64,000 bases of DNA from a virus (IMGVR_UViG_2563366911_000001); one strand, 5' to 3'; shown: positions 3,097-51,204, numbered from the stretch's first letter. Program-made: numbers and translations. Notes: generated by a model from the sequence alone, not told the origin.

Positions 3097-4138
3097 ATCT
3101 AACGCTCGACGAGTGACTTGTGATAGCGCCGACTCCAAGCGCGTAATCAAAGAACAATCGTTGATGCATCGCCAGCCTACCGTGCGTCTTCTCCCAATTA
3201 TCGCGGTCACGCTCAATATCACGCTGGCATGACTGGCACAGAGGAATTGCGTAAATGTCATGCGCGCATAATCGACTATGACGAACGATATAAGGCGTAA
3301 TGTGAGCGCCAGCTCCCGCCGCTCCACACCCACAGCATGGACGGGAAGCAACAAAGTCCATGTACTCAGGTAATTTTAGCGATTGCAGTTTTGGTATTTT
3401 GAAATGCGCCATGCCAGGGTCGGAGTCAACATCCACAGGGCATACTTTTTCACGCATCGGCGCGGCGCGTTCTTCCATCATCTGAACATATGCTGTAGCG
3501 CGATCGTCATACGGGCGAATATCCGCCTCTTTCAGAGGTCCGCTATCCTGCGTTGCGGCTTTCATCTTATTTATTGATATACGGCAAACTTCTTCCGGCA
3601 TCAGGTGCATCATGTTGCGCATGAAAGCCCACCAGCACAGTTCCTGAATACTTAAATCATGGCCATCTGAAAGCCCCATTTCCTGACGGGCGACATCCAG
3701 TATCCAGTTAACGCGATTATTATGCAGCGTTTCTTTCAGCTCATTAAAACCACGCATCCGGTAATGGTTATCGTGATGCCAGCACAACAACACCGCGCTA
3801 TTGTCTCGTTCTGCGTGGACAATATGGTTGTCACACCAGCTACGATCTGCGGCCTGGCATTGCCCCTCTTTCCTGCGCAACCACGCCACCAGCGCGTCAA
3901 TTCCACCAATACGGCGAAACAGTTCATCGCTGTTAAAAAACGGCTGCAACGCCTCATTTGTTGCCATAGTTTGCTCGGAAACAACGAGGCCGTCGTCCAT
4001 GTGCTCGATTAACTCACGCGGCACCGGCTCCATAATAAATTTACGGCCAGCCTCCACCAGCTTTCTGACTTCCTGATCCACTTTGAATGTGGCGACGCCA
4101 AGCTCTTTTTGTACAAAGGGAGTAATTACGGCTTTCAC
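3095..4138 (-). CDS. Hypothetical protein, 347 aa, Cys/His-rich C-terminus (possible Zn-binding or HNH-like)
   Basis: Long ORF; C-terminal CCGCG...H...C...C-x2-C cluster. Confidence 0.7.
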
Positions 4139-4165
4139 ATCACACCTTTCATCACTGATTGGGCT

Positions 4166-4366
4166 TTATCTGCTGCCCGGCATTCTCTGTTTAAGCACAA
4201 CCATTTCCTGACGGCATAACACAGCAATAGCAGTCCTGGCTCCAATTTGCTTACCAACCAGGTATTGCTTTACCTCGCGGCGACTCACGCCATCAAGAAG
4301 CATCTTTAACGCTTCACGGGACAATTTGTTGTATTTGCGTGCCATTAATCTACTCCGCAGAACCAT
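4166..4366 (-). CDS. Small basic hypothetical protein (about 59-66 aa)
   Basis: Short ORF immediately downstream of doc; start uncertain. Confidence 0.4.
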
Positions 4367-4730
4367 ACAATCTACGCAACGTGTCGGCGACAGAAGATAC
4401 AGATATCTCGCCAGTCGCAGCGCCTACAGTAAGGTCTGCCAGTTCAGGTGAATCAAATACCTGCACCCCGTTACGGCGTAGAAATAGCAGCGCGCTGTTT
4501 AGCGCGGTACGCTTATTGGCATCATTGAATATATGCCCTCTCGCTGTAGCCACCAGGTAGGTGGCGGAGACTTCGAAAAGGTCGGTGATCTCTTCGTAGG
4601 CAACTCTGGCCTGAACTCTCCCGATAATGGCCTCTGCCCTGCCCGGATCTGACATGCCAGGCAGGCCGCCGTAGCGGCTTATATTCGCATCATGAAGCGC
4701 AATAAGTTCTTCCGGTGATATATGCCTCAT
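4350..4730 (-). CDS. doc: Doc toxin (Fic/Doc family), 126 aa
   Basis: [26 protein letters not shown]-terminus and [11 protein letters not shown] Fic-type motif; start overlaps phd stop. Confidence 0.9.
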
Positions 4731-4957
4731 TATCGGTTAACCAGTTCCTTGTTGGTGGAGTCCAGGGTGTCAAACAGGGATGCAAATTCAGCATCCAGCG
4801 CCGCTTTTTTGTAGGCTTCGAAAGTAGCCTTGCTGACAATTACTGCTGGCTCACGGCCTCTGCGGGTGATTTCAACCTCTTCCCCGGCTTCAACATTGTT
4901 GAGCACTTCAGAAAGGTTGCCGCGCGCGGTACGGAAGTTAATGGATTGCATAAACAC
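4730..4957 (-). CDS. phd: Phd antitoxin (probable start at 4951, 73 aa)
   Basis: [32 protein letters not shown]; translationally coupled to doc. Confidence 0.9.
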
Positions 4958-5023
4958 CTCGTGTACTCGTTATGTGTACACAATTATAAACCTCACAGGC
5001 ATAAAGCACCAGCCCTTTGCAGC

Positions 5024-5413
5024 TTAAATAACCGGACAATCATCAAACTCCCCACTTCGGGCATCATTGATGACATGAGTGATCACACCAAAAACAGCAT
5101 TACTGCCCGTGCATCCATCGTCATCTACTGGTAACGCCTCTTTCTTCCCGGTGCTTAAATCCTCCAGGTGCTGGCGCGGATACTTCCTGTATCTCTTTAT
5201 GCGATATTCACCCTCCATAGCGCACACAAGCAGCGAACCATCAACTGGAGTAAGCGAAGAATCAACCACCAGCAAAGCACCCTGCAATATTCCCTCACGG
5301 TGATGGCTATCAGCTGCCCGCATGAAGTAGGTTGCTGATGGATGTCTAATTATCTGCTGATCAAGAGAAATTCGGCTTTCAACATAATCCGCCGCAGGAG
5401 AAGGGAAACCCAT
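5024..5413 (-). CDS. humD: UmuD'-like S24 peptidase (HumD-like), 129 aa
   Basis: GFPSPAADYVE...HPSATYFMRA matches UmuD without its N-terminal 20 residues; LexA box upstream. Confidence 0.85.
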   Translation of the reverse strand: MGFPSPAADYVESRISLDQQIIRHPSATYFMRAADSHHREGILQGALLVVDSSLTPVDGSLLVCAMEGEYRIKRYRKYPRQHLEDLSTGKKEALPVDDDGCTGSNAVFGVITHVINDARSGEFDDCPVI

Positions 5414-5431
5414 AGCGTTTTACCTCAAAAA

Positions 5432-5451
5432 TACTGTTTATCTGTACAGTA
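5432..5451. promoter_or_regulatory. LexA (SOS) box TACTGT-N8-ACAGTA in the divergent promoter region
   Basis: tactgtttatctgtacagta: CTGT-N8-ACAG core, 19 bp upstream of humD start and 137 bp upstream of the 5588 gene. Confidence 0.7.
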
Positions 5452-5587
5452 TACATTAAAGAAGCACCTTTGGTGCAAACGCGTTATGTACATCAACCAC
5501 CGCTGATGATTTTTGTGCGCTTTGCTACTATTCATCACCGCGGGATCAGCGTAACCTCGTTGCCAATCAGTTAATAAGGAATTAGCT

Positions 5588-6172
5588 ATGCCTAATCGCA
5601 TTCCTCTCGATCCTGTATTGCCCAAAAATTTTGACTGCACTCCTAACGAGAAACGCTCTAAAGCTCAGCTGGACGCCTGGTGGGACCATCCATATGGGGT
5701 TACACAACCTGACGGGAAAATTGTAGTTTATTGTCTGAATGGTGGGGCGTGGGACCGTCCATCCGTGCTTTGTTTGGCAGATAACTATGATGAAGCCTGT
5801 GAACTTGCCGAAAGACAGCAGGCAAGCTGGGTAAAAACACGGTCTGAACCGACATTCATGTTTTCAAAAGAACCGCCATTTATACTGGCGAGGATGCCGC
5901 AGCGACCGGATCATCAACAAGAAATTGTTGCTGAATTTTCCTCAAGGGATGAGATGAATCTCTTCTCATTAAAGCAGGAAGAAAGGGATCGCGTCGAAGT
6001 GTCTCCAACTCTCGACCACAACCGGATGAACCTGGCCCAGCTCGCCTGGTACAGCAAAGAATTAGAGATGTCTATTTCCCGGCTTGAAAACGAAAAAGCC
6101 GCTATCCAAGTCCAGCACGAAGTAGTTCTGAACCGGATTAGAGAAATGCAAAACGATAACAGGGGATTTTGA
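5588..6172 (+). CDS. Hypothetical protein, 194 aa
   Basis: ORF divergent from humD; coiled-coil-like C-terminus; no domain recognised. Confidence 0.6.
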   Translation: MPNRIPLDPVLPKNFDCTPNEKRSKAQLDAWWDHPYGVTQPDGKIVVYCLNGGAWDRPSVLCLADNYDEACELAERQQASWVKTRSEPTFMFSKEPPFILARMPQRPDHQQEIVAEFSSRDEMNLFSLKQEERDRVEVSPTLDHNRMNLAQLAWYSKELEMSISRLENEKAAIQVQHEVVLNRIREMQNDNRGF

Positions 6173-6529
6173 ATGGCTAAAATCGAGTACCATCGCGATC
6201 GCGGTAATTACCTGGAAATATACGATCATGAATCTCTTAACGATATCAACGATGCGTTATATGAATACTGTGAAAAAACGAGCATCACAGATGCACCTGA
6301 TGCATTTGTCGAGCTGCCGGTATATCTCCGCGACATCTATGCAATACGAACACCGCCCGTATCGGTGATTCACATTGGCTATGTCCGCCTGTCCATCAAA
6401 GAAGATGAAGATCGTTATATCGTGCGCCACTATACATTGGACAGAAAAGAACTTCCTAATGAATGGAACATGAGTAATTTCTACAACGGTGAATATGGCT
6501 TAAAATCCGCTAATAATTTACGGTCATAA
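6173..6529 (+). CDS. Hypothetical protein, 118 aa, adjacent to the 194-aa gene
   Basis: ATG 1 nt after preceding stop; no domain recognised. Confidence 0.6.
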   Translation: MAKIEYHRDRGNYLEIYDHESLNDINDALYEYCEKTSITDAPDAFVELPVYLRDIYAIRTPPVSVIHIGYVRLSIKEDEDRYIVRHYTLDRKELPNEWNMSNFYNGEYGLKSANNLRS

Positions 6530-6655
6530 TCTATACAGGCATGTATAACAACAATGAGCCTATTAGCTGTCAACAACGTTATTTTCTCAAATAAGAAAAA
6601 GCAGAAAACAAATTGTTTAAGGTCACAAATTGTGGCCTTGATGGAGGAGGGAGGC

Positions 6656-6870
6656 TTATTGGCTATGGCTAAAAATCAAATTAGACACTTCATGTTGCTG
6701 TAGCTCATCAAGATCCGAGGCCACAAAACCTTTTCCGAAAAACTTCACAAGTAACTCACTAGCCGCATCATTGTCACCTATTACACGAAAGTCATACGGC
6801 AACGTCGCAAGCTGACGATGTAATCCTGCTGAGAAAGTCGAATCTAACAGCGCCCAGAATTCCCACCGCA
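6656..6870 (-). pseudogene. Possible C-terminal gene remnant (about 70 codons, no in-frame start)
   Basis: Frame reads ...ILRWEFWALLDSTFSAGLHRQLATLPYDFRVIGDNDAASELLVKFFGKGFVASDLDELQQHEVSNLIFSHSQ-stop, preceded by an in-frame stop and AT-rich non-coding DNA. Confidence 0.3.
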
Positions 6871-7391
6871 GGATAATACTCGCCTCTTAATACTGTATAT
6901 ATGTTGTTACGATATGTTTTTCTGTCTCTAAAAAAAGATGTTAATAGAATGCTAACCATTGAAGGGGATAAAAATATACAATTCCAACAAACGTTATTTT
7001 TAACAATTTTTTTCTTTGCGTTGACTTTCCCGGACACCTTGTCTGACCGAAGGTGCGCGAAAGCCACTTTTTCCTTCCTGAGTTATCCACAAAGTTATGC
7101 ACTTGCAAGAGGGCCATTTTCTACATATTGTGGTGGCTAACAGATGAAATGAATGTAGATTAATTGAAGATAAGGAGAAAATTTGAGATGCAATCATGAC
7201 GTTAATAGATAGGGTCTGCATTACAGACCCCACCCGCATCAAGGAATTAGCCGTTCCCTGATGTTTTTCCGAAAACATGTGCCGTAAGCTCACGTTAACG
7301 ACTTTCATTCACCGAATCCAACTATATAGGGGTTGGGTTTCTACGTCAACGTGAGCAAGTGCACCTTTACATTTGACAAGGAACCACCTGA

Positions 7392-7529
7392 ATGAACGCT
7401 TTTTTTCAGTTCCTGAGTGCATTTTTAGATGCGCCTATTATTAGCCAGATTCTGGCTATTATCCTCATCATCGTTTTGATTTTGCTTTTAAGGTCAGTAA
7501 AAGATGGAATTATGCACTGGCTTACTTAA
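7392..7529 (+). CDS. Small hydrophobic peptide, 45 aa, single predicted TM helix
   Basis: ATG 9 nt after AAGGA; MNAFFQFLSAFLDAPIISQILAIILIIVLILLLRSVKDGIMHWLT; followed by palindrome aatgtttcagtgaaacatt; below the ORF-track length cut-off. Confidence 0.4.
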   Translation: MNAFFQFLSAFLDAPIISQILAIILIIVLILLLRSVKDGIMHWLT

Positions 7530-7604
7530 TGTTTCAGTGAAACATTAAAATCTCCTTGATGTGGAAACAATCATTTTCTGTATGTGCTGGTGGGCACCTG
7601 TAGT

Positions 7605-7967
7605 TCAGCTTTCGTTGACATTTAACTTCGTCTTTGCTTTCTCCACCAGCAACTTCCAGATGCCTATTTCATTAGCAGCCGCCTTGATGGCGGCATAAAA
7701 AGCATCTTGCTGATCGTAACGCTGGATCTGTTTTTTCAGTTTTGCCTCCACCAATTTAATTTCATTACGTGCTTTCTGAAGCCGCATCACCGCCCGGTTA
7801 CGTCTGTTCTTGTATAGCGTGTTAATCTCTGACAATTGTTTTAATTTGCCAGCCTGACTGCGGATTATCGCCTCCCTGGCTTCTGCCGTGCGTCTCATCT
7901 GATCTCTTAAGAGTTCACCGTTTTCGATAATTCTTTCAAGGTGTTTGATGTGATCTGCAACTCTCAT
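7605..7967 (-). CDS. Hypothetical coiled-coil protein, 120 aa
   Basis: ORF, last gene of the long minus-strand block. Confidence 0.6.
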   Translation of the reverse strand: MRVADHIKHLERIIENGELLRDQMRRTAEAREAIIRSQAGKLKQLSEINTLYKNRRNRAVMRLQKARNEIKLVEAKLKKQIQRYDQQDAFYAAIKAAANEIGIWKLLVEKAKTKLNVNES

Positions 7968-8638
7968 ACTTCACCCTCGCTTGTATCACCAGCGTCCACC
8001 AACGACAATAAAGCCCTGGCCATCTTATGAACCAACAGTGCATCAATAATGCCAAGCGTATGCCCCGGCTTAATGTTTAATGCCGCCTCAAGGTGACACC
8101 TTTCCAGGTCACTTTTCTCGGCTTGTTTATGATGATCTGGCGTAATAACGTCGCCCAAAACACGGCTAATTCTTTCTCGTAATTGCTGGGTGCCAGCACA
8201 CTTGATCGCTGTATCGTGGAGACGGTTAACCAGTTCGCGATAAACATGCGGCTTAATGCGGATACGTTCACCGGTGACGCCCTTTCCTGGCGCTGGCACC
8301 GAACTATCCGGAATATCCGGATAGTTGCCAGCCTCGTAAGCTACCCGCAGCCAGTGCATGAATGTTTCAGTGGACACACAACCACAGTCCACATCGATTT
8401 TTCCGCGTTGCTGTTCCAGCCACTGCTCAAAATTCAATCTACACGTATTACTTTCATGTTGCTCTTTTTGTCTCAAGGCCAGCACCTGTTGGGCCAGTTC
8501 CAGAACGATACCGGGTGACGCTAACCTCTCAAATTCCAATAAATAGTTTGCGTCAGGATGACAAGTAGCCTCGCCTGCAAAAAATACCAATTGCTGTAAG
8601 TATGCTGTCGTTAGAGTAGTCATTTCTTTTTGCGCCAT
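7964..8638 (-). CDS. Hypothetical protein, 224 aa
   Basis: ORF with 4-nt overlap to the downstream gene. Confidence 0.6.
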   Translation of the reverse strand: MAQKEMTTLTTAYLQQLVFFAGEATCHPDANYLLEFERLASPGIVLELAQQVLALRQKEQHESNTCRLNFEQWLEQQRGKIDVDCGCVSTETFMHWLRVAYEAGNYPDIPDSSVPAPGKGVTGERIRIKPHVYRELVNRLHDTAIKCAGTQQLRERISRVLGDVITPDHHKQAEKSDLERCHLEAALNIKPGHTLGIIDALLVHKMARALLSLVDAGDTSEGEV

Positions 8639-8994
8639 TTCTTTTCACATTCCTTAGTCCATTTTTCAATGTTCATTTTGGCAATATCGGTCATTCCATC
8701 ACCTAAGAAATACTTTCTCCGGTATGTCTTGCACTTAAACCACACTACAACAGCCACCAGCCAGAAAATAAAAGGCCATACAGCAATACCAACGACAGCC
8801 GCGATAAAGCCCAATATCCATAAATGAAGCTCTCCAACTTCTGTTTCCGGCAATATTCTTAAAGAATTAAACAGCAGGCTGAACGAATGGTCGTATGCAT
8901 TGGCAGTATAAGACATGCAATCCATATAATTAAAGTCATAGCCTGCGGCTGCCGCCCATAATGGGCGGTCAAGAAAATGTTTTAGTGTCATCAT
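8620..8994 (-). CDS. Small membrane protein, 124 aa
   Basis: Hydrophobic segment ILGFIAAVVGIAVWPFIFWLVAVVVWF, Lys-rich C-terminus. Confidence 0.55.
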   Translation of the reverse strand: MMTLKHFLDRPLWAAAAGYDFNYMDCMSYTANAYDHSFSLLFNSLRILPETEVGELHLWILGFIAAVVGIAVWPFIFWLVAVVVWFKCKTYRRKYFLGDGMTDIAKMNIEKWTKECEKKWRKKK

Positions 8995-9000
8995 ATAAAT

Positions 9001-9390
9001 TTAAGGTTCAGACCAGTTATCTTCAATAGCAATGCTTAATCTTTGTAGCCATTCTGCTAATTTCAGCATTGCTTCTCTTTCGCTTAAACCACGAGGAAAA
9101 TCATCAAGCGAAATTGTTGGCTTGAATCCACCGTAATTATCCATTTCAACTGTCAGATTTTGTTCCAGCACGGTATTTCTTACGCGGCTATTGTGCCGGA
9201 GCAAATATACTGAGCGTGATTTATTGGTTTTGTGGTCTAGCTTATATTCGGTAAGTATCATCTGGCTTTTGCCATGACTATTACCTCTCCACATACTTAC
9301 CTCACTTAATAAAACAACTCCATGCGTAGTTGATGATTTTTTCCCACGCAATATAAATCTGCACTCCGGCAGTAAAACCAAAGCCAACAA
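9001..9390 (-). CDS. Hypothetical protein, 129 aa
   Basis: ORF in operon context. Confidence 0.5.
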   Translation of the reverse strand: MLALVLLPECRFILRGKKSSTTHGVVLLSEVSMWRGNSHGKSQMILTEYKLDHKTNKSRSVYLLRHNSRVRNTVLEQNLTVEMDNYGGFKPTISLDDFPRGLSEREAMLKLAEWLQRLSIAIEDNWSEP

Positions 9391-9472
9391 TTGCTGAAAA
9401 AATCAAAACATTTACTTTTGACATTATAAATTTTCTCTCGGTGTCGTAGGTGATAGCACCATAATTGATAAT

Positions 9473-9724
9473 TTAGTGAGTTAGCAGTTCCATTTTTTTG
9501 ATGATTTCCGCATGAGCATCATCGTTATCAACACTTAGCTCGTTTAATGCTTCTCGCACTACATCAACTTCTTCAGGCTGAAAGAAGTCGTCGCGGTAAT
9601 CACCAAATAGAACCGAAACCAGCCTGCCACCAGCAACATCAAGATTGGCGCTAACAGGTGGCTCTTTGCCATCCTCAAATTCGACTACAAAAGTTATTTT
9701 TCCCATCGTTACCACCAGCGACAA
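9473..9724 (-). CDS. Small acidic hypothetical protein, 83 aa
   Basis: ORF in operon context. Confidence 0.5.
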   Translation of the reverse strand: MSLVVTMGKITFVVEFEDGKEPPVSANLDVAGGRLVSVLFGDYRDDFFQPEEVDVVREALNELSVDNDDAHAEIIKKMELLTH

Positions 9725-9788
9725 ATTGAATACAAACCCAGTGCTGCCGCCATCACAATTCCTACCGTGGTGAATGCTTCAGGCCAGC

Positions 9789-10505
9789 TCATTGATTCAC
9801 CTCCTGCGGCGGTTCTGGTAGCGGCATCCAGTGTGACGGTTTCCACGACGCACCAGGAATTATCCACCCATCATTAGCGTCAGGATGCCCGGGGATGTAA
9901 GTAGCCCATTTCATTCGCCAGTCACCTTTCCTGTCAAACTCCACGGCAACAAGAACGGCTGTTTTGGTATTCGGCATTCGCTCACTACAGCTTATCCAAC
10001 CATCCGGAGTTGCCGGAGAGTTGCCCGATAGCTGGTTCAACTTGTAAGTTTGGCTTACAGGTTCGGCACCATGAAGCATGGCGTCGCTCCGCTCTATGCC
10101 ATCCAGCGCGATTCGCAGTGCCTGAATTGTGGTAGAGCTATCGTTTGGGGCTATTCCATATCGCTCGAATACAGCTAAATGGTTGCGCATAATCTCAGGC
10201 GTAAGCTCTTTGTAAGCATAAGCAAGAGGCTCTGATGCATTATCCGGCACAACCGACGCAGGCGCGGCAGCATAAACAGGAATAACGTCCGCTTGCTCTT
10301 TATTGCTTTCATCCGTTAAAGACCAGAATAATTTCCCGGCCGGATGTTTGAAAATATAAGCAACTGGATCTGCTTCCAGCGATGCCAGCGCAATTCGTGC
10401 CAGTTCTTCCGCTTCTTCTGCTGGCAGTACAACGTTGCTACCAGGTCCGTATGTTTCGCGCCACTGCTTGATTGTCAGTAGTCGCTCTTTGGTAATAGTG
10501 ATCAT
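9789..10505 (-). CDS. DUF551-like phage protein, 238 aa
   Basis: C-terminal DGWISCSERMP...HWMPLPEPP pattern; N-terminal module shared with the 11380-11742 protein. Confidence 0.65.
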   Translation of the reverse strand: MITITKERLLTIKQWRETYGPGSNVVLPAEEAEELARIALASLEADPVAYIFKHPAGKLFWSLTDESNKEQADVIPVYAAAPASVVPDNASEPLAYAYKELTPEIMRNHLAVFERYGIAPNDSSTTIQALRIALDGIERSDAMLHGAEPVSQTYKLNQLSGNSPATPDGWISCSERMPNTKTAVLVAVEFDRKGDWRMKWATYIPGHPDANDGWIIPGASWKPSHWMPLPEPPQEVNQ

Positions 10506-11068
10506 GCCGCGTTTCCTTCTTTCTTATTAACAATTACACCGTCATATATTTCATTAAGGTGCCCTCTCAACTCCATGCGCCTTAATGCAGATAACATGTA
10601 ATCGCATTCAACCTGCTTATTCCCAATAAAAGGTTTATCTTCAGGGTTACCCCAACAGCAATTCCCCTTGGGCCATCCATGTACTTTCCGTACTCTTCCG
10701 TTAACAACGTGAAGTAATCCCCAGCCGGGAGGTAAATCCTCAACTGAAATAATTCCCGGCTCACTAATAAAGAATCGCCAGTCGCCCATTCCAAGAGACG
10801 GATTTTTACGAAAACGCTTTTTTCTATCTGCCAACAAGTCAGCACGAGAACACTTCGCCTCTATCAGGCATGATGCTGAATTTCTGAATCCCATAGCATC
10901 TGGCTGTTCTCCGGTACTGGTTACAGCTATAAAGCGGTCATGAAAACAAACCTTGAACCCGTTGCGCTTAAGGAACTTATACGCAATCTGACAGAGTTCG
11001 CGGTGTGTTAACGCCATATCACTCTCCTTTAGTGCGCAAGTGGTTTTTCCAGCGGTTTTGCGCCGCAC
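10502..11068 (-). CDS. PD-(D/E)xK-type nuclease-like protein (probable start near 11017)
   Basis: PDAMGF...LIEAKCSRADL resembles a PD-ExK catalytic core. Confidence 0.55.
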   Translation of the reverse strand: MRRKTAGKTTCALKESDMALTHRELCQIAYKFLKRNGFKVCFHDRFIAVTSTGEQPDAMGFRNSASCLIEAKCSRADLLADRKKRFRKNPSLGMGDWRFFISEPGIISVEDLPPGWGLLHVVNGRVRKVHGWPKGNCCWGNPEDKPFIGNKQVECDYMLSALRRMELRGHLNEIYDGVIVNKKEGNAA

Positions 11069-11379
11069 TGGGCTTTTTGCAACAACTGTGACCCATCACC
11101 CCGCAACACCCCGCCAACCTCACTCGTCTGTTACTAATCCTCAACCAGCGCCAGATCCCAACACCGTTTCTGCGAGCTAACAGAATCTTTGCCTTACGGT
11201 TTTTCATCGCTTTGCTCTCCTGCGTCTCTTTGCTGCTCGTCGTGCCGCTGCAATACCGGTATGGCGGCGCTTTGGTGCCGGGATGATGTTGTCAGCCATC
11301 AGGACATGTGGCTTTGCAATTAGCGCAGAAGCCCAAAAACGAGTCGGGTACGGTAACAAGCCGAAAAATGCCACACGCA

Positions 11380-11742
11380 TTACTCACCTCCCTTACCCTG
11401 AAGCATGGCAGCGCGGCAGGCGTTCCAGCCATCAACATAATCAAACGTATTGCTATCGTCTGGCTCGATTTCATCCGGCACTACCGGCTCTGGTTGGATA
11501 GTGACGTTGGCAAAGGCAGCACGCAAACCGGCCTTAATTTCCTCTACTTCATCAGCGCCTAGCGATGAATCTGACAATGCGTGATGGAATGCGTAAGCCA
11601 TGTCGTCGTTTACTGCAACCGGTTCGGCTTCCAGTGATGCCAGCGCAATTCGTGCCAGTTCCATTTGTTCGCCACGGGTAAGCCCGTTATCAAGCGGATT
11701 TTTAATGAATAATTCGATACGTTCTTTGGTAATAGTGGTCAT
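11380..11742 (-). CDS. Hypothetical protein, 120 aa, paralogous N-terminal module
   Basis: MTTITKERIELF...ELARIALASLEAEPVA shared with the 9789-10505 N-terminus. Confidence 0.6.
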   Translation of the reverse strand: MTTITKERIELFIKNPLDNGLTRGEQMELARIALASLEAEPVAVNDDMAYAFHHALSDSSLGADEVEEIKAGLRAAFANVTIQPEPVVPDEIEPDDSNTFDYVDGWNACRAAMLQGKGGE

Positions 11743-12029
11743 TTGTTAATCCTCAAAACTTTATGCCCGGGCGCAAAAGCACGTGTTTTGTCTTTACTTA
11801 TTCGCCACCCGTCTTTACGGGCCTCTTTTGCACAACCAGACCATGACGTACCGATATACTCACCGAAGTCTGGCACTGGATATACACCTTCCGTACACTG
11901 GCGGCAGTCACAATAGAGATGCATGGTGTAACTTGCAGCGATAGCCATATCACTCTCCTTTGATGCGAATGCCAGGGGCGCGTGGCACATTAACTTCCAC
12001 GATGCGCACAGTTGGTTTGTACATCTCAA
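11739..12029 (-). CDS. Small Cys-rich protein (probable start near 11951)
   Basis: HLYCDCRQCTEG...WSGC pattern. Confidence 0.4.
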   Translation of the reverse strand: MRCTNQLCASWKLMCHAPLAFASKESDMAIAASYTMHLYCDCRQCTEGVYPVPDFGEYIGTSWSGCAKEARKDGWRISKDKTRAFAPGHKVLRINK

Positions 12030-12582
12030 TCGCAGTCAGCCAGTCAGCGCCAGTCATGCGCTTTTCTGCATCGCCATTAGTCCACTTAACCGGTACACCA
12101 ATAGCCTTCATCGCGATTTCTATTTCCCCGGCAATGGCGCTTTTTCCGCAACCAGTAAAACCAGATACAACGACCAGAACTTCACCTTTGGCTGGTTTTA
12201 TTTCCCGCTCCTCCAGTTCAGCAATGCGCTTACTCCCATCCGAGATAACACCTTCGTAATACTCACGCTGCTCGTTGAGTTTTGATTTTGTCTCCTCAAG
12301 CTCAACTCTCAGCTTCCCAACCGTAAGCGCAATATCCTCGTTCTCCTGGTCGCGGGATTTGATGTATTGCTGGTTCCTTTCCCGTTCATCCAGTAGTGCC
12401 AGCACGGTTTCTGGTCCGGCCAGAAATTTGAAGGCGTTGAGCGCATCAATATCCACACCGTAATCTTTAAGTTCCTGTTCACTTAACAAATCATCATCAG
12501 CTGGCAACATTAACAGGCGTTCCATTGCTGGAATTGCACGTTCCGCCACCTCACGCAGTGCCTGGTAATTAATTTCGCTCAC
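11950..12582 (-). CDS. Ead/Ea22-like protein, paralog 1, 210 aa
   Basis: MSEINYQALREVAERAIP N-terminus, coiled-coil centre. Confidence 0.65.
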   Translation of the reverse strand: MSEINYQALREVAERAIPAMERLLMLPADDDLLSEQELKDYGVDIDALNAFKFLAGPETVLALLDERERNQQYIKSRDQENEDIALTVGKLRVELEETKSKLNEQREYYEGVISDGSKRIAELEEREIKPAKGEVLVVVSGFTGCGKSAIAGEIEIAMKAIGVPVKWTNGDAEKRMTGADWLTAIEMYKPTVRIVEVNVPRAPGIRIKGE

Positions 12583-13292
12583 TGGTTGCCTCCTTTGCGA
12601 AGCTGGGCAGCAAAGTCAACTAACCACTCAGTCATTTCAACCTTCCCTACCAGGTCTGAACCAGGGTGCATACAGCAATCACTCTGCGCCGCTTTGAAAT
12701 CCTTACACTCATATTCTTGGGCCACCAGATTTTTTGCAGCTTCTATAGCAGCATCCACCCCCTGCGCCCGCACTTCAGACAGGAAAGCATCGGTGGCTGG
12801 AATTTGCGGCATCCCTCCGTCTGTTGCGCAGATATACGCATCAGATATTTCATCCTGCCGGCCATCAAACACGTAGCAACAGCCCCTGATAAACAGCTTC
12901 ATGGAGGCATTCTCCACTGCCAGCGCCGTGCGATTACCCTCCAGCTCTGCAATGCGCTGTTTTGCGGCATCCAGTTCAATCGACAATTTTTCCAACTGCT
13001 CTTGATGCTTCTTGTATTCCTGATATGCGTGCCAAGACTGACCTTTGCGCACACTATTAGTGATATCAGTAATCTGTTCTGGTGTTAGCGTGGTCAGTGG
13101 CTGTGATGGGAAAATAAGCACTTTCCCGGAATCCCAATCAAAACCAGCGTGAATTGACTGAACCTCAACTGAAGGTGTTGAACCAATGCTGCCAGGCGAA
13201 TGAACAACGATTGTTACATCCATATCGCGACGATGGCTGTGGTTGTTGGACAAAATACGATTCACCAACTCAGAAAATTTGGAAAATTTCAT
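12579..13292 (-). CDS. Ead/Ea22-like protein, paralog 2, 237 aa
   Basis: Coiled-coil centre and TDAFLSEVRAQGVDAAIEA block shared with the 13576-14283 protein. Confidence 0.65.
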   Translation of the reverse strand: MKFSKFSELVNRILSNNHSHRRDMDVTIVVHSPGSIGSTPSVEVQSIHAGFDWDSGKVLIFPSQPLTTLTPEQITDITNSVRKGQSWHAYQEYKKHQEQLEKLSIELDAAKQRIAELEGNRTALAVENASMKLFIRGCCYVFDGRQDEISDAYICATDGGMPQIPATDAFLSEVRAQGVDAAIEAAKNLVAQEYECKDFKAAQSDCCMHPGSDLVGKVEMTEWLVDFAAQLRKGGNQ

Positions 13293-13612
13293 GCTGATTC
13301 CCCTTTCTCTGCTCTCTCCTGTCGGAACATCACTATCATCAGGTCGCCTTTTGTCGCTATCCTGGCTGTTGTACCTGGTTCAATGCGGCTAAGCTCAAAT
13401 GCGTCATAGAACGCTTCTAATGCCTTCTGGCGTAGTTCCTGTTTGCGCCGTTTTTTCCACTGTTTTAGGAAAATGGAACCCAGCCATCGCCATGTGCGGG
13501 ACATGATGTAAAGCCAACCGAGAAGTGCCAGACCGGTATTTAGGAGCGTATCGATCGTTATTGTCGTGTCGATATTCACTGGCTGCTTCCTTTGCGAATC
13601 TGTTCCGCCCAT
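13289..13612 (-). CDS. Small membrane protein, 107 aa
   Basis: TM segment LLNTGLALLGWLYIM; lies between two Ea22-like genes. Confidence 0.5.
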   Translation of the reverse strand: MGGTDSQRKQPVNIDTTITIDTLLNTGLALLGWLYIMSRTWRWLGSIFLKQWKKRRKQELRQKALEAFYDAFELSRIEPGTTARIATKGDLMIVMFRQERAEKGESA

Positions 13613-14283
13613 TCTTCAAGGGATTTCTCCGCATATTCACCAGACAGGCCATCAATCGGATGCGCTTCATTAGCCAACTCTTCTTTCGCTGACAAAATCA
13701 TGCGTGTAACGTCGAAAACTTCACGCAAAGACTTATTGATAAATCCGTGATTGAACGCAGCAGCAAGACGGCTGGCGGTATAGTTAATCCCCTCGTTGCG
13801 TGCTTCCGCACGAATTTCAGCCAGAAAAGCATCGGTAGCTGGAGTTTCGCTGTGGTGTAGGGCATCGTTGATAATCATTGCAGCAACACCAGCCTGCCCT
13901 GCATCCGTGACCGACACATGCTCAAGAGTTACGGCCATTGCGTGTTTCAGCCCGGCGTTCTCTGCCACCAGCGCAGCGAGATTAGTCTCAAGCTCTGAAA
14001 TTCGGCACGTGGCATCAATATTTGTGTCCTCCAAGCACTTAATTTCACCAAGCAGCTCCAGTGCAACCTTTGGGTTGAACGCGGCAACATGACGAGCGTT
14101 GTTCTCTGCATTTTTCTGTCCATCAAAGCCGGTCCATTTGATAACGTCTTCACATCGTTCATCACCGGGCGTGTGCACCGCATAAGTACCAGTATCCGTC
14201 GAAATAAATGCGACCCATTCGTCTGGTGTTGCCTTTTCTGCCGCCTCACGCAGTACCTGATAGTCAATTGTCATTCTCGCCAT
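13576..14283 (-). CDS. Ead/Ea22-like protein, paralog 3, 235 aa
   Basis: IDYQVLREAAEKATP N-terminus and TDAFLAEIRAEARNEGI block. Confidence 0.65.
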   Translation of the reverse strand: MARMTIDYQVLREAAEKATPDEWVAFISTDTGTYAVHTPGDERCEDVIKWTGFDGQKNAENNARHVAAFNPKVALELLGEIKCLEDTNIDATCRISELETNLAALVAENAGLKHAMAVTLEHVSVTDAGQAGVAAMIINDALHHSETPATDAFLAEIRAEARNEGINYTASRLAAAFNHGFINKSLREVFDVTRMILSAKEELANEAHPIDGLSGEYAEKSLEEWAEQIRKGSSQ

Positions 14284-14915
14284 CCTTCACAGTTGTAATC
14301 ACTACAGCCTTCAAAATCATATGGGCTGTACTGCCAGGTTATTTTTCCGCAATGCGGACAATTCCAACGCACCTTCCCGCTTCGCGACTTCTTTCTTCTG
14401 TTCTGCTCTTTCAACCAGTCAGGCATGACCAAACCTGCGCCCTGAACCATTGTTCTGCGGTTAAAGTTATTGATATTGAACGTCCGGCGCTTTGCTGCAT
14501 CAGCAATGGAAAATGGCAACCAAACTATTCCTGGTTCGTTTTTGTTGGCGACGCTAAAGATGGTCGCTTTACTGAAGTCATCTGTTGGCAATCCACCGTG
14601 TTGAAGCCAGTAAACATCGTTGCCGTTCCAGCTACCTTTTTTGTAGGCCACATACGCAGTGCAATCTGACTCAATCAGGCTTTCTGTAGGGATGTACTGG
14701 CAATCAACGTGCCACACAGCCATTGCATCCACACTATCGGCACAAACAGGCTGATCGATATCTCGCCCACAATTCCAGGCTTTTTGGGCTTCTTCCAGCG
14801 TGTAAACATGAGCGCGATCGATATCAGAACTGTAACCATTGCCGTTATGGCAATGGAATGAGGCGTTATTACCCACAGTTTCACGCAAGCACATCATGTA
14901 AAAACGGTTACTCAC
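14271..14915 (-). CDS. Hypothetical protein with C-terminal Zn-ribbon-like motif, 214 aa
   Basis: NCPHCGK...CSDYNCEG at the C-terminus. Confidence 0.6.
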   Translation of the reverse strand: MSNRFYMMCLRETVGNNASFHCHNGNGYSSDIDRAHVYTLEEAQKAWNCGRDIDQPVCADSVDAMAVWHVDCQYIPTESLIESDCTAYVAYKKGSWNGNDVYWLQHGGLPTDDFSKATIFSVANKNEPGIVWLPFSIADAAKRRTFNINNFNRRTMVQGAGLVMPDWLKEQNRRKKSRSGKVRWNCPHCGKITWQYSPYDFEGCSDYNCEGWRE

Positions 14916-15192
14916 TGGTTGCCTCCGCTTCCCACGTTTTCAGACTTTCACCACAGAACGGGCAAAATGAAACTCGAATAGGCGATTTAGAAAATTCACC
15001 AGACCGCAGCATGATCAGGTCTCGTGAATGAATTAATTCATGGTTATAGATTTTGTATTTCAGCAGACCTTTTCGCGTCGTGTATTCAGCGTCATGCTCC
15101 AGGGATTGTGCCAACGCCGCGCACGGTTCTATCTTGTTGCCATTAATTTGGCATTTTGACTCACTCACTGGTTGCCCCCTGAATACGCTCAA
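14908..15192 (-). CDS. Hypothetical protein, 94 aa
   Basis: ORF with TTG start, CPFCG motif; overlaps the upstream gene by 32 nt. Confidence 0.4.
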   Translation of the reverse strand: MSVFRGQPVSESKCQINGNKIEPCAALAQSLEHDAEYTTRKGLLKYKIYNHELIHSRDLIMLRSGEFSKSPIRVSFCPFCGESLKTWEAEATSE

Positions 15193-15742
15193 ACTCGATT
15201 ACCCACACCCAGGGATTAGCGTTCCAACTATCTTCGCCATAAATTGATTTCCATAGGCTACGGAAACCTGGGTAATGCTTATCGCCAATGAGGGTCGATT
15301 CTGTTGGTGCGCCCTCAGTCCTTGCATCGCATTCGCTGATATCGTTCAACCGCTCAACGCGCACGTTGGTAATTTCCAGAAGAATGCGCGATGCCCAGCG
15401 CGGCATGTGAATTGATGGCGTCCACTTTTCTGATACTGGTTTATTACAAACCTCGACCGGAACCCGGTGCGTTTGTTCTGTCCAGGAGTTACGCACACTT
15501 GCGCGATAAACCAGCGTTGCGACGTCCGTCGCTTTGCCATGTACCCGGTAGGTTTCGCGAACCCAAATACGATCGCCCGGTTGACCATATGGACAATGCT
15601 TGGCAAGCAACTCTGCGGCCACTGCCCGTCCATAGAATTTTTCTTCAACAATCCTGCGAGTCTGTGTTTTATTCCCGCCAAGAATTGCCCGGACCATCTC
15701 ATCGTTAAAAATCATGCCGCGCTCTTTCACTTCGCCTTTCAT
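15161..15742 (-). CDS. Conserved phage protein, 193 aa
   Basis: MIFNDEMVRAILGGNKTQTRR N-terminal signature; tightly coupled to the upstream 28-aa ORF. Confidence 0.65.
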   Translation of the reverse strand: MKGEVKERGMIFNDEMVRAILGGNKTQTRRIVEEKFYGRAVAAELLAKHCPYGQPGDRIWVRETYRVHGKATDVATLVYRASVRNSWTEQTHRVPVEVCNKPVSEKWTPSIHMPRWASRILLEITNVRVERLNDISECDARTEGAPTESTLIGDKHYPGFRSLWKSIYGEDSWNANPWVWVIEFERIQGATSE

Positions 15743-15751
15743 GCATCCCCC

Positions 15752-15838
15752 TTACCCATGTGCGACGATGCCGCCAAAAGTGATAGAGAACAGCCAGAAA
15801 TAGATCGCGGCCATAATGATTTTGAATGCCGTGTTCAT
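15752..15838 (-). CDS. 28-aa hydrophobic peptide (MNTAFKIIMAAIYFWLFSITFGGIVAHG)
   Basis: AGGAG Shine-Dalgarno 9 nt upstream; stop 9 nt before the next ATG; sits just downstream of a C1-operator promoter; below ORF-track cut-off. Confidence 0.35.
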   Translation of the reverse strand: MNTAFKIIMAAIYFWLFSITFGGIVAHG

Positions 15839-15879
15839 ATTTTCAGCTCCTGTGATTGATTGGATACATGCCGCGCCTT

Positions 15880-15936
15880 GCGGCATGTTTTTATTTTCAC
15901 TTTCTCTGTTTTAAAAATCAAGATTTATTAGAGCAA
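15880..15936 (-). promoter_or_regulatory. C1-type operator (ATTGCTCTAATAAATCT, 15920-15936) overlapping a sigma70-like promoter (TTGCTC-17-TAAAAC), then a hairpin
   Basis: 16 of 17 match to operator consensus; -35 lies inside the operator; identical -10 to the 18062-18078 promoter. Confidence 0.55.
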
Positions 15937-16443
15937 TTATTGTTGATGAAGAAGCGCGTTTTCATACTCCCTGACCATTAACGTAAGTACGCCGTGACTC
16001 CTGAAAATACGCGCCACTTCAATCTTATCTTCCAGCGCGAACGCGATTTTACTTAGACCAATTTTCTTAAGGAGATCAATCTTTGCTGGGCCGTCATTTC
16101 TGTCATCGGTGGCAGGACGCATAGATAGCAAAGGCTCAGCCCCGTTTGTTACGTACTTCCGCAGCCAGGCTCGTGTTTTATCCCTTGCGATCTCACAGCG
16201 CCCAGTTACAAACCAGACCGTGTAAACGTTAAATAACTGGCGCACCATATCAATAACTGGAGTGATGGGTGTATCGGTGTCACAGGCGAGATTAAACTCG
16301 TTCCAGTCCTTTGTTAATGCACCTTTACCTGGTGGCGGAAGCAAATGCAGTCTGTCTTCAGTTGCCTCTGATATTGTTCCATCAATATCGACTATGACGA
16401 TATACGGACGTTCCTGGCGTGCGTGTTTATTGAAAATACTCAA
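15937..16443 (-). CDS. HAD-superfamily phosphatase-like protein, 168 aa
   Basis: IVIVDIDGT motif I near the N-terminus, later VTGR and K...D motifs. Confidence 0.7.
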   Translation of the reverse strand: MSIFNKHARQERPYIVIVDIDGTISEATEDRLHLLPPPGKGALTKDWNEFNLACDTDTPITPVIDMVRQLFNVYTVWFVTGRCEIARDKTRAWLRKYVTNGAEPLLSMRPATDDRNDGPAKIDLLKKIGLSKIAFALEDKIEVARIFRSHGVLTLMVREYENALLHQQ

Positions 16444-16467
16444 ATGCCCTCCTCATTGGACGAAAAA

Positions 16468-16496
16468 AATGCTGGTGGGCGCACTCCACCAGCATT
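16468..16496. terminator. Intergenic palindromic hairpin AATGCTGGTGG-gcgcact-CCACCAGCATT containing inverted Chi octamers
   Basis: 11-bp perfect inverted repeat between two minus-strand genes; A-run before, no strong T-tract after. Confidence 0.35.
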
Positions 16497-16515
16497 AAAA
16501 GTGACACTGTAACTA

Positions 16516-17778
16516 TCAGCGGACGTAAATAGTGCCGCCGTTCTCTTTTTCCCATGCATCGCTACGTGCATAGCAAACATCGAGAAGTCTTCTTGCCGCT
16601 GTTTCCTCTAAACCCAATTCGACAACCAACTGCTCATGACGGCGGGTAACCACATCAAACAGGGTATGCAGCCCTTTAGCTGCCAGATCATCAATAAATT
16701 CCGGTTCGAACGGCAGCTCTGCCTCTGCCAACATAACCTCTTGCGCCCACTCAACTCGACGGACTAGTTCCGGGCGGCGGCTTTCCATCTCTTTACAGAT
16801 CAATTCATGGAAGAACTCTACCCAACCTTCCGGCTGGAACTCGCGGAAAATGGCCAACGGCTGGAAGTTTGGCATCAACCATTCGTTGATCCGGATATCA
16901 ATGGCATAGCCCATGTCGCAGCAGAACTGATAAGCAAAGTCCAGCTTAGAAACGATATAAGGACGCTCGTTATTGAACTCTTTAGGCGATGAGATCCCAT
17001 AAGCCAGGAGGCGCGGGAAGAAGGAGATTTGCCCTAACGTCGGATGAAGTTTGCTTGCAGGGAAACGGCGCTCAGTAATGCCATACATTTCCTTCTTGAG
17101 CGTCGCAAATTTGGCATTCTCATTAACCAGCGCGGTAACCTCTGCTTTTTTATTAGCAAATGCCACGCGCGCTTCGCTTGCATCTTTAATAGTTTTTTTG
17201 AGCTGTTGGTTAAGGTCGGCGACCTGCTTACGCAGTTCCTGTCGCTCGCTTTTAGCTTTGTTATAGCGTTTCTCAAGGTTAAAAGGATCAAGTTTCATGA
17301 TCTCTTTATATTGAGATTTTAGCGTTGAAATCTGTGAGTTCCGCAGTTCAACCATCGCGGTCATTTCATTGAGTTTTGTTTCCAGCTCAATGCTTATACG
17401 TTCGGCATTATCAGCACGCTGGTTGGCGTCATGTGTCGCATCGTCGATCGCGTCCTGTTGCTGGCGTTTCAAATGTTCAATTTGCAGCTGAAGCTCTTCA
17501 ATTTCTTTACCCTTCAGACCGAGATCCAACTGCATATTTTCAGCTGCATCTACCAGGGAGTTATGGCTATCAGCTTCTGCGTTATAAACATCAATAAGCT
17601 GTGCGTGAAGCATCTCCGCTGACTGAACCGCATTATCAAAAAAACGTGCTGTGAGGTCATCACAACTAACGCGGCGTTGCGCGGCCCGGATGTTCTGGAT
17701 AATGGCCGGGATACCGGCATTCAGGACGTCAGGGATAGATACATTTTCGATTGATTGGTTTTGTGCTGAAGTGCTCAT
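16516..17778 (-). CDS. Hypothetical protein with long N-terminal coiled coil, 420 aa
   Basis: Heptad-rich region about residues 70-230; C-terminal globular region of unknown fold. Confidence 0.7.
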   Translation of the reverse strand: MSTSAQNQSIENVSIPDVLNAGIPAIIQNIRAAQRRVSCDDLTARFFDNAVQSAEMLHAQLIDVYNAEADSHNSLVDAAENMQLDLGLKGKEIEELQLQIEHLKRQQQDAIDDATHDANQRADNAERISIELETKLNEMTAMVELRNSQISTLKSQYKEIMKLDPFNLEKRYNKAKSERQELRKQVADLNQQLKKTIKDASEARVAFANKKAEVTALVNENAKFATLKKEMYGITERRFPASKLHPTLGQISFFPRLLAYGISSPKEFNNERPYIVSKLDFAYQFCCDMGYAIDIRINEWLMPNFQPLAIFREFQPEGWVEFFHELICKEMESRRPELVRRVEWAQEVMLAEAELPFEPEFIDDLAAKGLHTLFDVVTRRHEQLVVELGLEETAARRLLDVCYARSDAWEKENGGTIYVR

Positions 17779-17779
17779 T

Positions 17780-17998
17780 TCAAAGTTCCGTATTAGCTTG
17801 TGCTTCGGTCATTTTTCCTAAGTATGAAGGTGGAAGGACTACGCAATTTGTATCCAGCCCCTCACCCAGGGCAGCCTGTAAAATTCTGGCTAAGGAGAGT
17901 CTCTTGTTGCGATACCGGGTGATGACATGCCTGATATCGCCGGACGGCGTAACAAAGGCGATCAGCCAGTAGTGATATTTCCGTCGGAATGGCCACAT
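17780..17998 (-). CDS. Small hypothetical protein, 72 aa, first gene of a C1-operator-controlled operon
   Basis: AAGGTG Shine-Dalgarno 5 nt upstream of ATG at 17998. Confidence 0.5.
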   Translation of the reverse strand: MWPFRRKYHYWLIAFVTPSGDIRHVITRYRNKRLSLARILQAALGEGLDTNCVVLPPSYLGKMTEAQANTEL

Positions 17999-18012
17999 AG
18001 TGCACCTTATGG

Positions 18013-18078
18013 ATTGCTCTAATAAAAAACGTGATGAGTGTACATCACGTTTTAAAAATATGGAATTATTAGAGCAAT
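18013..18078. promoter_or_regulatory. Pair of inverted C1-type operators (18013-18029 and 18062-18078) flanking a palindrome; minus-strand promoter TTGCTC-17-TAAAAC
   Basis: ATTGCTCTAATAAAAAA and reverse ATTGCTCTAATAATTCC; central palindrome ACGTGATG-n-CATCACGT. Confidence 0.6.
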
Positions 18079-18079
18079 A

Positions 18080-18781
18080 TTATTCTGATTCTTGCTCAAA
18101 AAACGCGCTAATGAGAGGAAGCCAATCCTCTGACACTTCACGCGGTCGCGGTTTGCCATGGAAGAAGATTATTCGGCAGTCTTTTGGTAATGCCCCATTC
18201 CCCCTGGAGTAGCGCGCACTTGCATATTTCGAACCAGGTTCCACAACATCGGCCTTGTAACTTACAAACCATCCCGGATACAGATCCTGAAATGCTGGTG
18301 TATCATCGCCCATAACCTTCCGTAAGAACCCCTGATCACCCCAGCATTCAGTAGTAACACAACGAGCAATCCAACCTTCCGGATCTTGCCAGAATGCACT
18401 CCAGATATGCGCTTTTACACTATTTGGTATCCACAGGGCACCGCTGCCACGATATTGTGGATGGTAAAAATCCCTAAGCATGGTGAAGCTGGTTGGTGGA
18501 TGCTCTAGGATTGGGCGTATATCACCGGCAATAACCGTGTCCAAATCCAGATAGAACAGATCATCGGTTATATCCGGTCGGAACAACTCTATTTTCGCCC
18601 ACCAGCCACGGCACTTTTGCCACTGGTTGATCAATGGGACAACTTTGACGCCAGGTACATGTAAACGCTTCAGGTCTGTCAGGCAAATAATTTCATAGCC
18701 TTTTGGCAGTTGATTAACCAGCCACTGCACATCGGAAGCGTTATAGTCACCACCAGAGCGAAAAACTAAAGCAATCTTCAT
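18080..18781 (-). CDS. Putative GT-A-like nucleotide-sugar transferase, 233 aa
   Basis: DxD-like [12 protein letters not shown] motif in an alpha/beta context; assignment tentative. Confidence 0.5.
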
Positions 18782-32089: not shown

Positions 32090-32135
32090 ATTCATTGAGG
32101 CGATATTACACTAATAAATTTATTAGAGCAATATA
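32090..32135 (-). promoter_or_regulatory. Overlapping palindromic C1-type operators with promoter TTGCTC-17-TAATAT for the tRNA/SPFH/ban operon
   Basis: ATTACACTAATAAATTT (plus) and ATTGCTCTAATAAATT (minus) overlap at 32105-32132. Confidence 0.6.
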
Positions 32136-51202: not shown

Positions 51203-51204
51203 AG

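Follow-up and report, generated by a model that had tools for sequence, protein, structure and literature searches.

The 64,000-nucleotide (nt) viral stretch IMGVR_UViG_2563366911_000001, referred to in its whole length as the window, holds at positions 7605-15742 of its minus strand a block of 17 co-directional open reading frames (ORFs) that is probably a cassette array within a C1-repressed early operon, beginning at the operator Op88/OpmgT that follows pap. The operon is known as pmgT-pmgU-pmgV in phage P1 and as the hea operon in phage P7; its cassettes belong to a lambdoid pool, and the short arrangement of P1 would be a deletion form. The block is a hypervariable locus that has already been described, and the lambdoid-mosaic reading made in an original prediction from the sequence of the window holds.

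The C1 operator, the leader and the genes of the array

According to megablast and to local BLAST against the annotated P1 record, the region around the block is that of a P1/P7-type phage-plasmid. With 4000-22000 as the query, megablast coverage was 78% for SJ46, 73% for P7 and 55% for canonical P1 at identities of 97.6-98.5%, and among complete records the IncY plasmid CP099272 is nearest, with 99.9% identity across 4000-14926. The block lies between pap and the upf/lxr/humD segment, with flanks that are 95-98% identical to P1 and P7; about 96% of it is coding, and stop and start codons overlap at 11 of its 16 junctions. P1 homology ends at window position 8339 and restarts at 15651, and the non-P1 part is therefore 8340-15650; these 7.3 kb are the counterpart of about 0.6 kb within P1 pmgT. 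The extent of 7605-15742 first given for the foreign block is thus correct for its centre, while its ends (15651-15742 and 7605-8339) have homology to P1. Canonical P1 does not hold these genes in synteny, which was the comparison by which the original prediction had proposed that it could be refuted. Profiling of guanine-cytosine (GC) content, which it had proposed as a check and to which tetranucleotides were added, does not tell the block apart from the backbone: the block has a GC fraction of 0.476 against 0.474 and comes 4th of 44 chunks by tetranucleotide distance, within the range of the others. Such lack of a compositional mark is expected if both phage types have long been resident in the same hosts.

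Two features precede the first gene of the array:

15921..15937, minus strand: C1 repressor operator (Op88/OpmgT of P1; Op(hea) of P7), with one mismatch to the consensus ATTGCTCTAATAAATTT
15752..15838, minus strand: unannotated leader ORF of 28 codons, hydrophobic, MNTAFKIIMAAIYFWLFSITFGGIVAHG; it has a ribosome-binding site (AGGAG) and stops 9 nt short of the first array gene

The operator overlaps the pap stop codon and the predicted pmgT promoters, and C1-operator-like sites in the window number 10 where 0.32 are expected. The 206-nt leader is 99% identical to P1, in which OpmgT (formerly Op88) and two predicted promoters are annotated; the P7 record annotates the same site as Op(hea), the operator of the 'hea operon'. 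The 28-codon ORF sits within the leader 15743-15920, between the C1 operator and the first array gene, and could encode a leader peptide or a small membrane peptide. Its product is identical in six P1-like loci (P1, P7 and four others); as the DNA itself is 97-99.5% identical, this conservation is uninformative on selection. A crude consensus scan found no promoter/terminator pairs on the minus strand inside the block and a promoter-like count of 8, below the shuffle expectation of 14.7. Because a C1 operator and a P1-like leader stand upstream, the genes overlap and internal promoter/terminator pairs were not found, we infer that the block is one C1-repressed early operon and not a set of morons.

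The products of all array genes were searched with the Pfam, NCBIfam and PHROGs profile libraries. Named families are limited to Ead_Ea22 (two proteins), DUF551 and DUF4752, and the remaining ORFs belong to PHROGs of unknown function. The genes are listed from entry to exit, with lengths in amino acids (aa):

15161..15742, minus strand: entry gene, divergent PmgT-family protein of 193 aa (P7 Upf86.8), by homology to P1 PmgT and P7
14908..15192, minus strand: 94-aa protein with 4 Cys (P7 Upf87.4), by ORF and P7 homology
14271..14915, minus strand: 214-aa protein with a Cys-rich, zinc-ribbon-like C-terminal tail (P7 Upf87.6); phrog_2457, E 1.6e-119
13576..14283, minus strand: Ead/Ea22-family protein of 235 aa; PF13935, E 4e-24, 86.2 bits against a cutoff of 27
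13289..13579, minus strand: small DUF4752 protein with a hydrophobic segment; PF15944, E 2.4e-42; 96 aa in the CP099272 annotation
12579..13292, minus strand: 237-aa coiled-coil protein; phrog_368, E 1.7e-74
11950..12582, minus strand: Ead/Ea22-family protein of 210 aa; PF13935, E 4.7e-38, 131.3 bits against a cutoff of 27
11739..11948, minus strand: 69-aa protein with 4 Cys; phrog_926, E 2e-36 over residues 28-96 of a longer ORF
11380..11742, minus strand: 120-aa protein with the N-terminal module TITKERL...ELARIALASLEA, by PHROG matches
11204..11380, minus strand: 58-aa highly basic protein, a recurrent self-contained cassette, by recurrence in relatives
10502..11017, minus strand: predicted PD-(D/E)xK nuclease of 171 aa (P7 Upf89.0; phrog_9263/631)
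9789..10505, minus strand: 238-aa protein with a C-terminal DUF551 domain; PF04448, E 2.2e-21, residues 169-234
9473..9706, minus strand: 77-aa protein; phrog_3876, E 7e-53; annotated in CP099272
9001..9294, minus strand: 97-aa protein; phrog_1258, E 1.8e-49; annotated in CP099272
8620..8994, minus strand: 124-aa protein with a long hydrophobic stretch; phrog_2638, E 5e-63
7964..8638, minus strand: full-length 'long PmgU' of 224 aa, containing P1 PmgU as its C-terminal 111 aa
7605..7967, minus strand: PmgV, 120 aa, the conserved exit gene of the operon; phrog_4403, E 1e-77

The entry gene is 98% identical to P7 over its whole length and 47% identical to residues 1-232 of P1 PmgT, with the first 30 aa and one internal block identical. 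It has no Pfam match at E<=5, ASCH included, and its AlphaFold2 model, for which the alignment was shallow (homologs of 82% identity or more), reaches a mean confidence (pLDDT) of 49.8, too low for use. The GGNKTQTRR stretch of the PmgT family may resemble the ASCH motif. Profile searches gave no significant family match for the 94-aa protein, and only weak zinc-finger Pfam hints for the 214-aa protein, the gene of which is common to a Stx2c phage at 98.4% identity. Sequence search against solved structures returned nothing significant for the 171-, 193- and 214-aa proteins. The Pfam DUF4752 match is reported on the ORF 13289-13612. The 69-aa gene measures 210 nt in the annotations of CP099272 and a lambdoid prophage, and RefSeq relatives annotate 177-nt coding sequences at the position matching the 58-aa gene, whose cassette (11188-11394) recurs in the Stx2c phage, TL-2011b and CP069885 at 96-98% identity. 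At the exit, P1 PmgU is 95% identical to residues 114-224 of long PmgU, within which P1 nucleotide homology begins at window position 8339, codon 100; pmgV lies inside a segment 94.6% identical to P1.

Three tandem Ead/Ea22 paralogs separated by a small membrane protein had been proposed for 11950-14283. Two of the three ORFs are true members of the family, and the middle one (12579-13292) is not, having no PF13935 match even at E<=5; what it has in common with the 235-aa Ead protein is a C-terminal module (28% identity over 144 aa, E 3e-8). By BLASTP, the overlap of the two true members is limited to an N-terminal motif of about 15 aa, which rules out a tandem duplication, and the Ead-type ORFs are therefore modular relatives. 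The small protein is the DUF4752 protein with its hydrophobic segment, and it lies between the second and third of these ORFs. A similar modularity is seen in the DUF551 protein, for which the family named originally is correct: it has the TITKERL N-terminal module in common with the 120-aa protein (41% identity over 98 aa, E 2e-9).

The assignment of the 171-aa protein as a PD-(D/E)xK nuclease, also made originally, is supported as a prediction by a structure model and an invariant D...ExK motif. The model has the alpha-beta-beta-beta-alpha-beta core fold of restriction-endonuclease-like proteins, and the motif consists of P39-D40 and E53-A-K55, with D40, E53 and K55 unchanged in all of 27 homologs (59-88% identity). 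In homologs from Salmonella and other hosts (P0087, P0088, P0100 and P0020), the nuclease is fused behind an Ead_Ea22 N-domain or joined with DUF551. As such fusions occur elsewhere, the Ead N-domain is suggested to be a portable adapter for different effector domains.

The pmgT/pmgU joint of reference P1

In reference P1 (NC_005856, L001 14489-15558), the models of pmgT (309 aa) and pmgU (111 aa) overlap by 196 nt, with a joint at about 15183 that reads GCTAATCCCTGGGTT on its left side and ACGAGGCTGGC on its right. The left side is the 3' end of a pmgT gene and the right side begins at about codon 100 of long pmgU. Intact pmgT is found in CP099272, where the 241-aa product is 97% identical to residues 1-232 of P1 PmgT and ends in ANPWVWVIEFERIQ before its stop codon; in relatives the intact genes encode 241 aa (pmgT) and 224-310 aa (pmgU). 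P1 PmgT has lost the last 9 codons of the intact form, and P1 pmgU lacks the first 100 or so, its frame staying open upstream of the annotated start. As the two frames differ at the joint, P1 "PmgT" reads 77 codons out of frame across pmgU. On comparison of these sequences the joint appears to be the signature of a deletion with 2-nt microhomology, by which the array would have been lost and pmgT codon 232 joined, in a different frame, to codon ~100 of long pmgU.

A probe of 80 nt spanning the joint found it complete only in three P1 records of laboratory origin and, among 47 plasmids with a match, in 5; in each of the other 42 the match covers exactly one half of the probe and breaks off at position 40/41. 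In two IncY plasmids, which come close to the precise undeleted parent of P1, both P1-identical halves occur at distances of 5.8 and 7.5 kb from each other, and intact pmgT is separated from a 310-aa pmgU by roughly 14-18 annotated genes. The block is matched by 807 PLSDB records, and the span from pmgV to pap in sampled plasmids ranges from about 2.1-2.2 kb to 9.2 kb. Since the joint reads as a deletion scar and is rare, and 807 records match the array, the short P1 arrangement appears to be derived and the array to be the common state at the locus, which reverses the acquisition by a P1 backbone that had been proposed. P1 retains the leader and operator, the first 30 pmgT codons, the C-terminal half of pmgU, and pmgV; it differs in having no cassettes, a chimeric pmgT ORF and a pmgU that is a 5'-truncated remnant.

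The lambdoid cassette pool and the surroundings of the locus

The description of the gene types as lambdoid is borne out. A Stx2c-converting phage has five collinear pieces in common with the block (207-1190 bp, 96-99.6% identity), and a chromosomal lambdoid prophage (L006) holds, in the same order, DUF551, small ORFs, the 69-aa gene, Ead/Ea22, a 244-aa homolog of the 237-aa protein and DUF4752, in cassettes 98% identical to the window. These lie between int/xis-like genes and yfdR/Q/P-cI-cro, in the layout int - dGTPase - helix-turn-helix protein - DUF551 ... Ead/Ea22 - 244 aa - DUF4752 ... yfdR/Q/P - cI - cro, which by gene order is the position of the lambda ea/exo-xis genes. In TL-2011b, which is podovirus-like, part of this cassette set comes after the replication genes, and the pool therefore has more than one docking site. 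Of 5426 complete E. coli genomes, 3353 contain pieces of the core (9796-14926), which lie at 7857 places in chromosomes against 778 in plasmids, an abundance which suggests that the lambdoid reservoir of cassettes is larger than the P1-like one. The array genes would be drawn from the pool that lambdoid prophages hold at the int-proximal end of the early-left operon.

The likeness to the lambdoid ea/exo-xis region (lambda ea22 and orf63, a DUF1382 gene; P22 ead) extends to the genes themselves (Ead/Ea22, DUF551, DUF4752 and small ORFs), their order, a nucleotide identity of 94-99.6% and, as predicted for the block, repressor-controlled early expression and dispensability. In contrast to that region, the block is placed under a P1 C1-controlled promoter on a plasmid prophage instead of under pL with N antitermination, and it is not flanked by int, xis and recombination genes.

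Among P1-like elements, P7 matches the window at 4000-8454 and at 14238-22000 (98% identical over the latter), and its match overlaps that of CP099272 by 689 bp (14238-14926). Judged from these alignments, the window is a recombinant with P7-type flanks and a CP099272-type centre, with one crossover falling within 14238-14926. The P7 hea operon (upf86.8 to upf90.8; NC_050152 / AF503408) has the same site after pap, the same C1 operator, the same first three genes (Upf86.8, Upf87.4 and Upf87.6, at 98% identity), an Ead/Ea22 gene, the PD-(D/E)xK gene (Upf89.0) and pmgV (Upf90.8). Its array measures 4.3 kb against 8.1 kb in the window; several small ORFs, a second Ead/Ea22 gene, DUF4752 and the 237-aa protein, all in the centre of the longer array (8455-14237), are missing from P7. 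IS903 lies nearby in P7 and is absent here. In PLSDB, no record matches the exact array in full length, and the best covers 93%.

Ends of high-scoring segment pairs against nine relatives define the recurrent junctions:

14926, in 5 relatives: a gene boundary
15651, in 4 relatives: pmgT codon 31
11188 and 11394, in 4 and 3 relatives: the two ends of the 58-aa cassette
12293, in 3 relatives: the end of the Ead N-terminal domain
about 10020, in 4 relatives: the start of the DUF551 domain
about 10363, in 4 relatives: the end of the TITKERL module

A mechanism can be proposed in which a conserved entry (operator, leader and the first ~30 PmgT-family codons) and a conserved exit (the C-terminal half of long pmgU, and pmgV) would enclose a variable run of small, translationally coupled accessory genes. 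Homologous recombination would reshuffle the arrays, the conserved ends serving exchange among P1-like elements, while exchange between a P1-like plasmid and a co-resident lambdoid prophage would go through shared cassettes and repeated N-terminal modules, which would be why the junctions lie at gene or domain borders.

A piece of the leader, 15748-15831 (84 bp; L010 5001-5084), is also found directly downstream of hsdR in many large non-P1 plasmids at 98.8% identity, mostly in IncF-sized records, and the P1 record remarks on the same hsdR-adjacent relic for R124/3 and EcoDXXI. The P1-like phages vB_EcoM-673R5 and phi456 have restriction-modification (R-M) genes in this interval, which are of type I in 673R5. 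From the relic and these genes, it is likely that the locus also exchanges with plasmid R-M islands. An E. coli chromosome assembly includes a further relative, L007 (NZ_CP093011.1, chromosome, 4408189-4435627), a P1-like element that looks complete and has a cassette array of its own; it is an integrated phage-plasmid such as Pfeifer and Rocha described in 2024, or else an assembly join.

Names were assigned to the flanking genes by local BLAST against the annotated P1 record:

5024-5413, minus strand: humD
5588-6172, plus strand: lxr homolog
6984-7967: upfO/N/M segment and pmgV
15937-16443: pap
16516-17778: pmgS
18778-19470: ppp
20802-21380: pmgM
21383-21628: pmgL
21775-22152: gene 26

The genes at 20802-21628, which had been counted as further lambdoid extras (a VRR-NUC nuclease and a TraR/DksA zinc finger), belong to the core of P1 as pmgM and pmgL, with about 98% identity to their P1 counterparts. 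PmgM scores 21.2 bits for VRR_NUC against a Pfam cutoff of 23.8, and RefSeq names the P1 protein VRR-NUC; PmgL has no TraR/DksA match at E<=5, only a weak treble-clef hint. On the other side, 5414-7604 is a second, smaller variable spot adjoining the array, with a GC fraction of about 0.41-0.42. The P1 DNA polymerase III theta homolog hot is missing here and the order is of P7 type, the lxr-like gene (5588-6172, plus strand) being followed by an Upf93.6-like gene (6173-6529, plus strand), with P7's IS903 missing; in the relatives L007-L009 hot is present and lxr missing.

Elsewhere in the window, a 754-aa ORF (32123-34387, minus strand) with C-5 cytosine and D12-class N6-adenine DNA methyltransferase domains should, by position, be the P1 dmt homolog, and a perfect-consensus C1 operator lies by it at 32116-32132. 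A hok/sok-type type I toxin-antitoxin module is present at 47468-47792 (minus strand), with an Rfam sok match of 115 bits at 47618-47792 and a 51-aa ORF at 47468-47623 that is Hok-like by sequence reading only. It is located downstream of a 281-aa ORF (48101-48946) called repL by position only, at the place of the variable rlfA-rlfB-pmgF region of P1. The lowest GC fraction of the window (0.36 at 52-54 kb) falls in 51001-54500, adjoining the C4 antisense RNA and its a1/b1 targets (51249-51454); this stretch, inside which a 357-aa ORF with a bacterial SH3 domain lies (52701-53774), is by position probably the variable sim/immI-adjacent region of P1-like elements.

Predicted function, competing explanations and meaning

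With moderate confidence, we infer that the array products are dispensable early modulators of host physiology, of the lysis-lysogeny decision or of host defences, and are not morphogenetic. In a CRISPR interference (CRISPRi) screen, P1 pmgT, pmgU and pmgV as well as lambda ea22 and orf63 were non-essential (PMC10695390), and lambda Ea22 is reported to favour lysogeny, with other exo-xis genes favouring lysis (PMC7093339). A DNA- or defence-related accessory role fits, since other P1-like arrays at the locus carry an adenine methyltransferase, a PAPS-reductase-family protein, a dATP/dGTP pyrophosphohydrolase or a complete type I R-M system.

The block has in common with morons, in the sense of Hendrix and Juhala, that extra non-essential genes stand between genes that are adjacent in a related phage. 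That a lambdoid 'moron' block was lately inserted into a P1-like backbone, with short P1 ancestral and the window a gain-of-cargo derivative, would account for genes that are missing from canonical P1 and near-identical to those of lambdoid prophages, but it is an unlikely history: P1 pmgT/pmgU reads as a deletion scar of two genes that are intact in relatives, its joint is rare against 807 PLSDB records matching the array, and the adjacency of the genes in P1 would itself be a deletion product. The term moron, used originally, also fits poorly with an array that sits behind a C1 operator inside a repressed operon, with no promoter/terminator pair of its own in the crude scan and no compositional anomaly. 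Less probable still is an island for defence or superinfection exclusion that the plasmid prophage would express to shield the lysogen from other phages. The hypervariability of the locus, the type I R-M systems of some P1-like elements, the hsdR-flanking leader relic in IncF plasmids, and the predicted nuclease and small proteins with hydrophobic segments in the array would all suit such an island; however, with a C1 operator upstream the operon should be off in the lysogen, the homologous lambdoid cassettes lie within a repressed early-left operon, and PADLOC matched none of the ten block proteins examined to a defence model.

A morphogenetic role, as implied by the P1 names pmgT, pmgU and pmgV ('putative morphogenetic function'), derives from historical annotation only and is very improbable given the CRISPRi result (PMC10695390), a gene content that differs in nearly every relative, the reading of P1 pmgT and pmgU as deletion remnants, and the placement of cassette homologs in non-structural early regions of lambdoid phages. 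An assembly chimera, with a P1-like plasmid joined to a lambdoid prophage from one and the same host, for which only the high identity to prophage DNA would speak, is rejected with near certainty, as independent complete records overlap across the junctions: CP099272 is 99.9% identical over 4000-14926 and P7 98% over 14238-22000, with an overlap of 689 bp, and hundreds of complete plasmids have comparable arrays at the same site.

Several points weigh against a C1-repressed array of lambdoid-pool cassettes with P1 as its deletion form. The consensus scan is crude and leaves room for internal or non-sigma-70 promoters, such as Lpa-dependent late promoters, and silence of the array in the lysogen followed by a single early transcript after C1 inactivation is deduced from the layout of sites. 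The polarity of the deletion rests on comparison of contemporary plasmids, and the cassettes may have flowed either from lambdoid to P1-like elements or the other way. The proposed function is drawn from position, variability and neighbours, and the negative PADLOC result counts here as well.

The interval was previously described as variable region 'RD-5' between pap and lxr in P1-like phage-plasmids (Venturini 2019, PMC6906374) and as variable 'region 8' (pmgT ... humD), within which the pmgT of JL22 is "replaced" by a cluster including an Ea22 gene (PMC9603915); both articles treat the same interval and describe how clusters of unknown genes take the place of pmgT and of pmg genes next to it. 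In text searches of these two articles, the word 'lambdoid' does not appear; one of them terms the change a 'replacement' of pmgT and does not mention a deletion in P1. The P1 structure paper PMC9024508 does not mention pmgT/pmgU, and the P7 GenBank record already flags the similarity of one gene to phage P22 Ead. Pfeifer and Rocha estimated that about 30% of P1-like phage-plasmid genes were recently exchanged (PMC10879196). With both recent exchange and the variable region published, the current view of phage-plasmid biology is unchanged. Beyond those sources, the array is mapped to the lambdoid int-proximal early-left region, with recurrent junctions at gene or domain borders, and pmgT/pmgU of reference P1 is presented as a deletion joint.

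A more speculative extension, which we hold to be doubtful, is that the pap-pmgV interval of P1-like elements and the int-proximal early-left region of lambdoid phages are two docking sites for one early-expressed pool of host-takeover or counter-defence factors, each built of a conserved N-terminal adapter and an interchangeable effector domain; examples could be proteins in which a coiled-coil, DUF551 or PD-(D/E)xK nuclease domain is fused to the Ead/Ea22 N-domain or to the TITKERL module. If this is true, reference P1, being a deletion derivative, would have kept the operon out of sight of P1 genetics for seventy years. The main use of the analysis lies in annotation and interpretation. The P1 reference pmgT (309 aa) and pmgU (111 aa), propagated as 'putative morphogenetic', appear to be deletion remnants and are unfit as a model of the wild-type operon. 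The locus is a clean natural case of genes passing between integrated lambdoid prophages and a plasmid prophage, with junctions at gene and domain borders, and a defined, repressor-controlled, dispensable site at which Ead/Ea22, DUF551, DUF4752 and the predicted nuclease may be studied or swapped.

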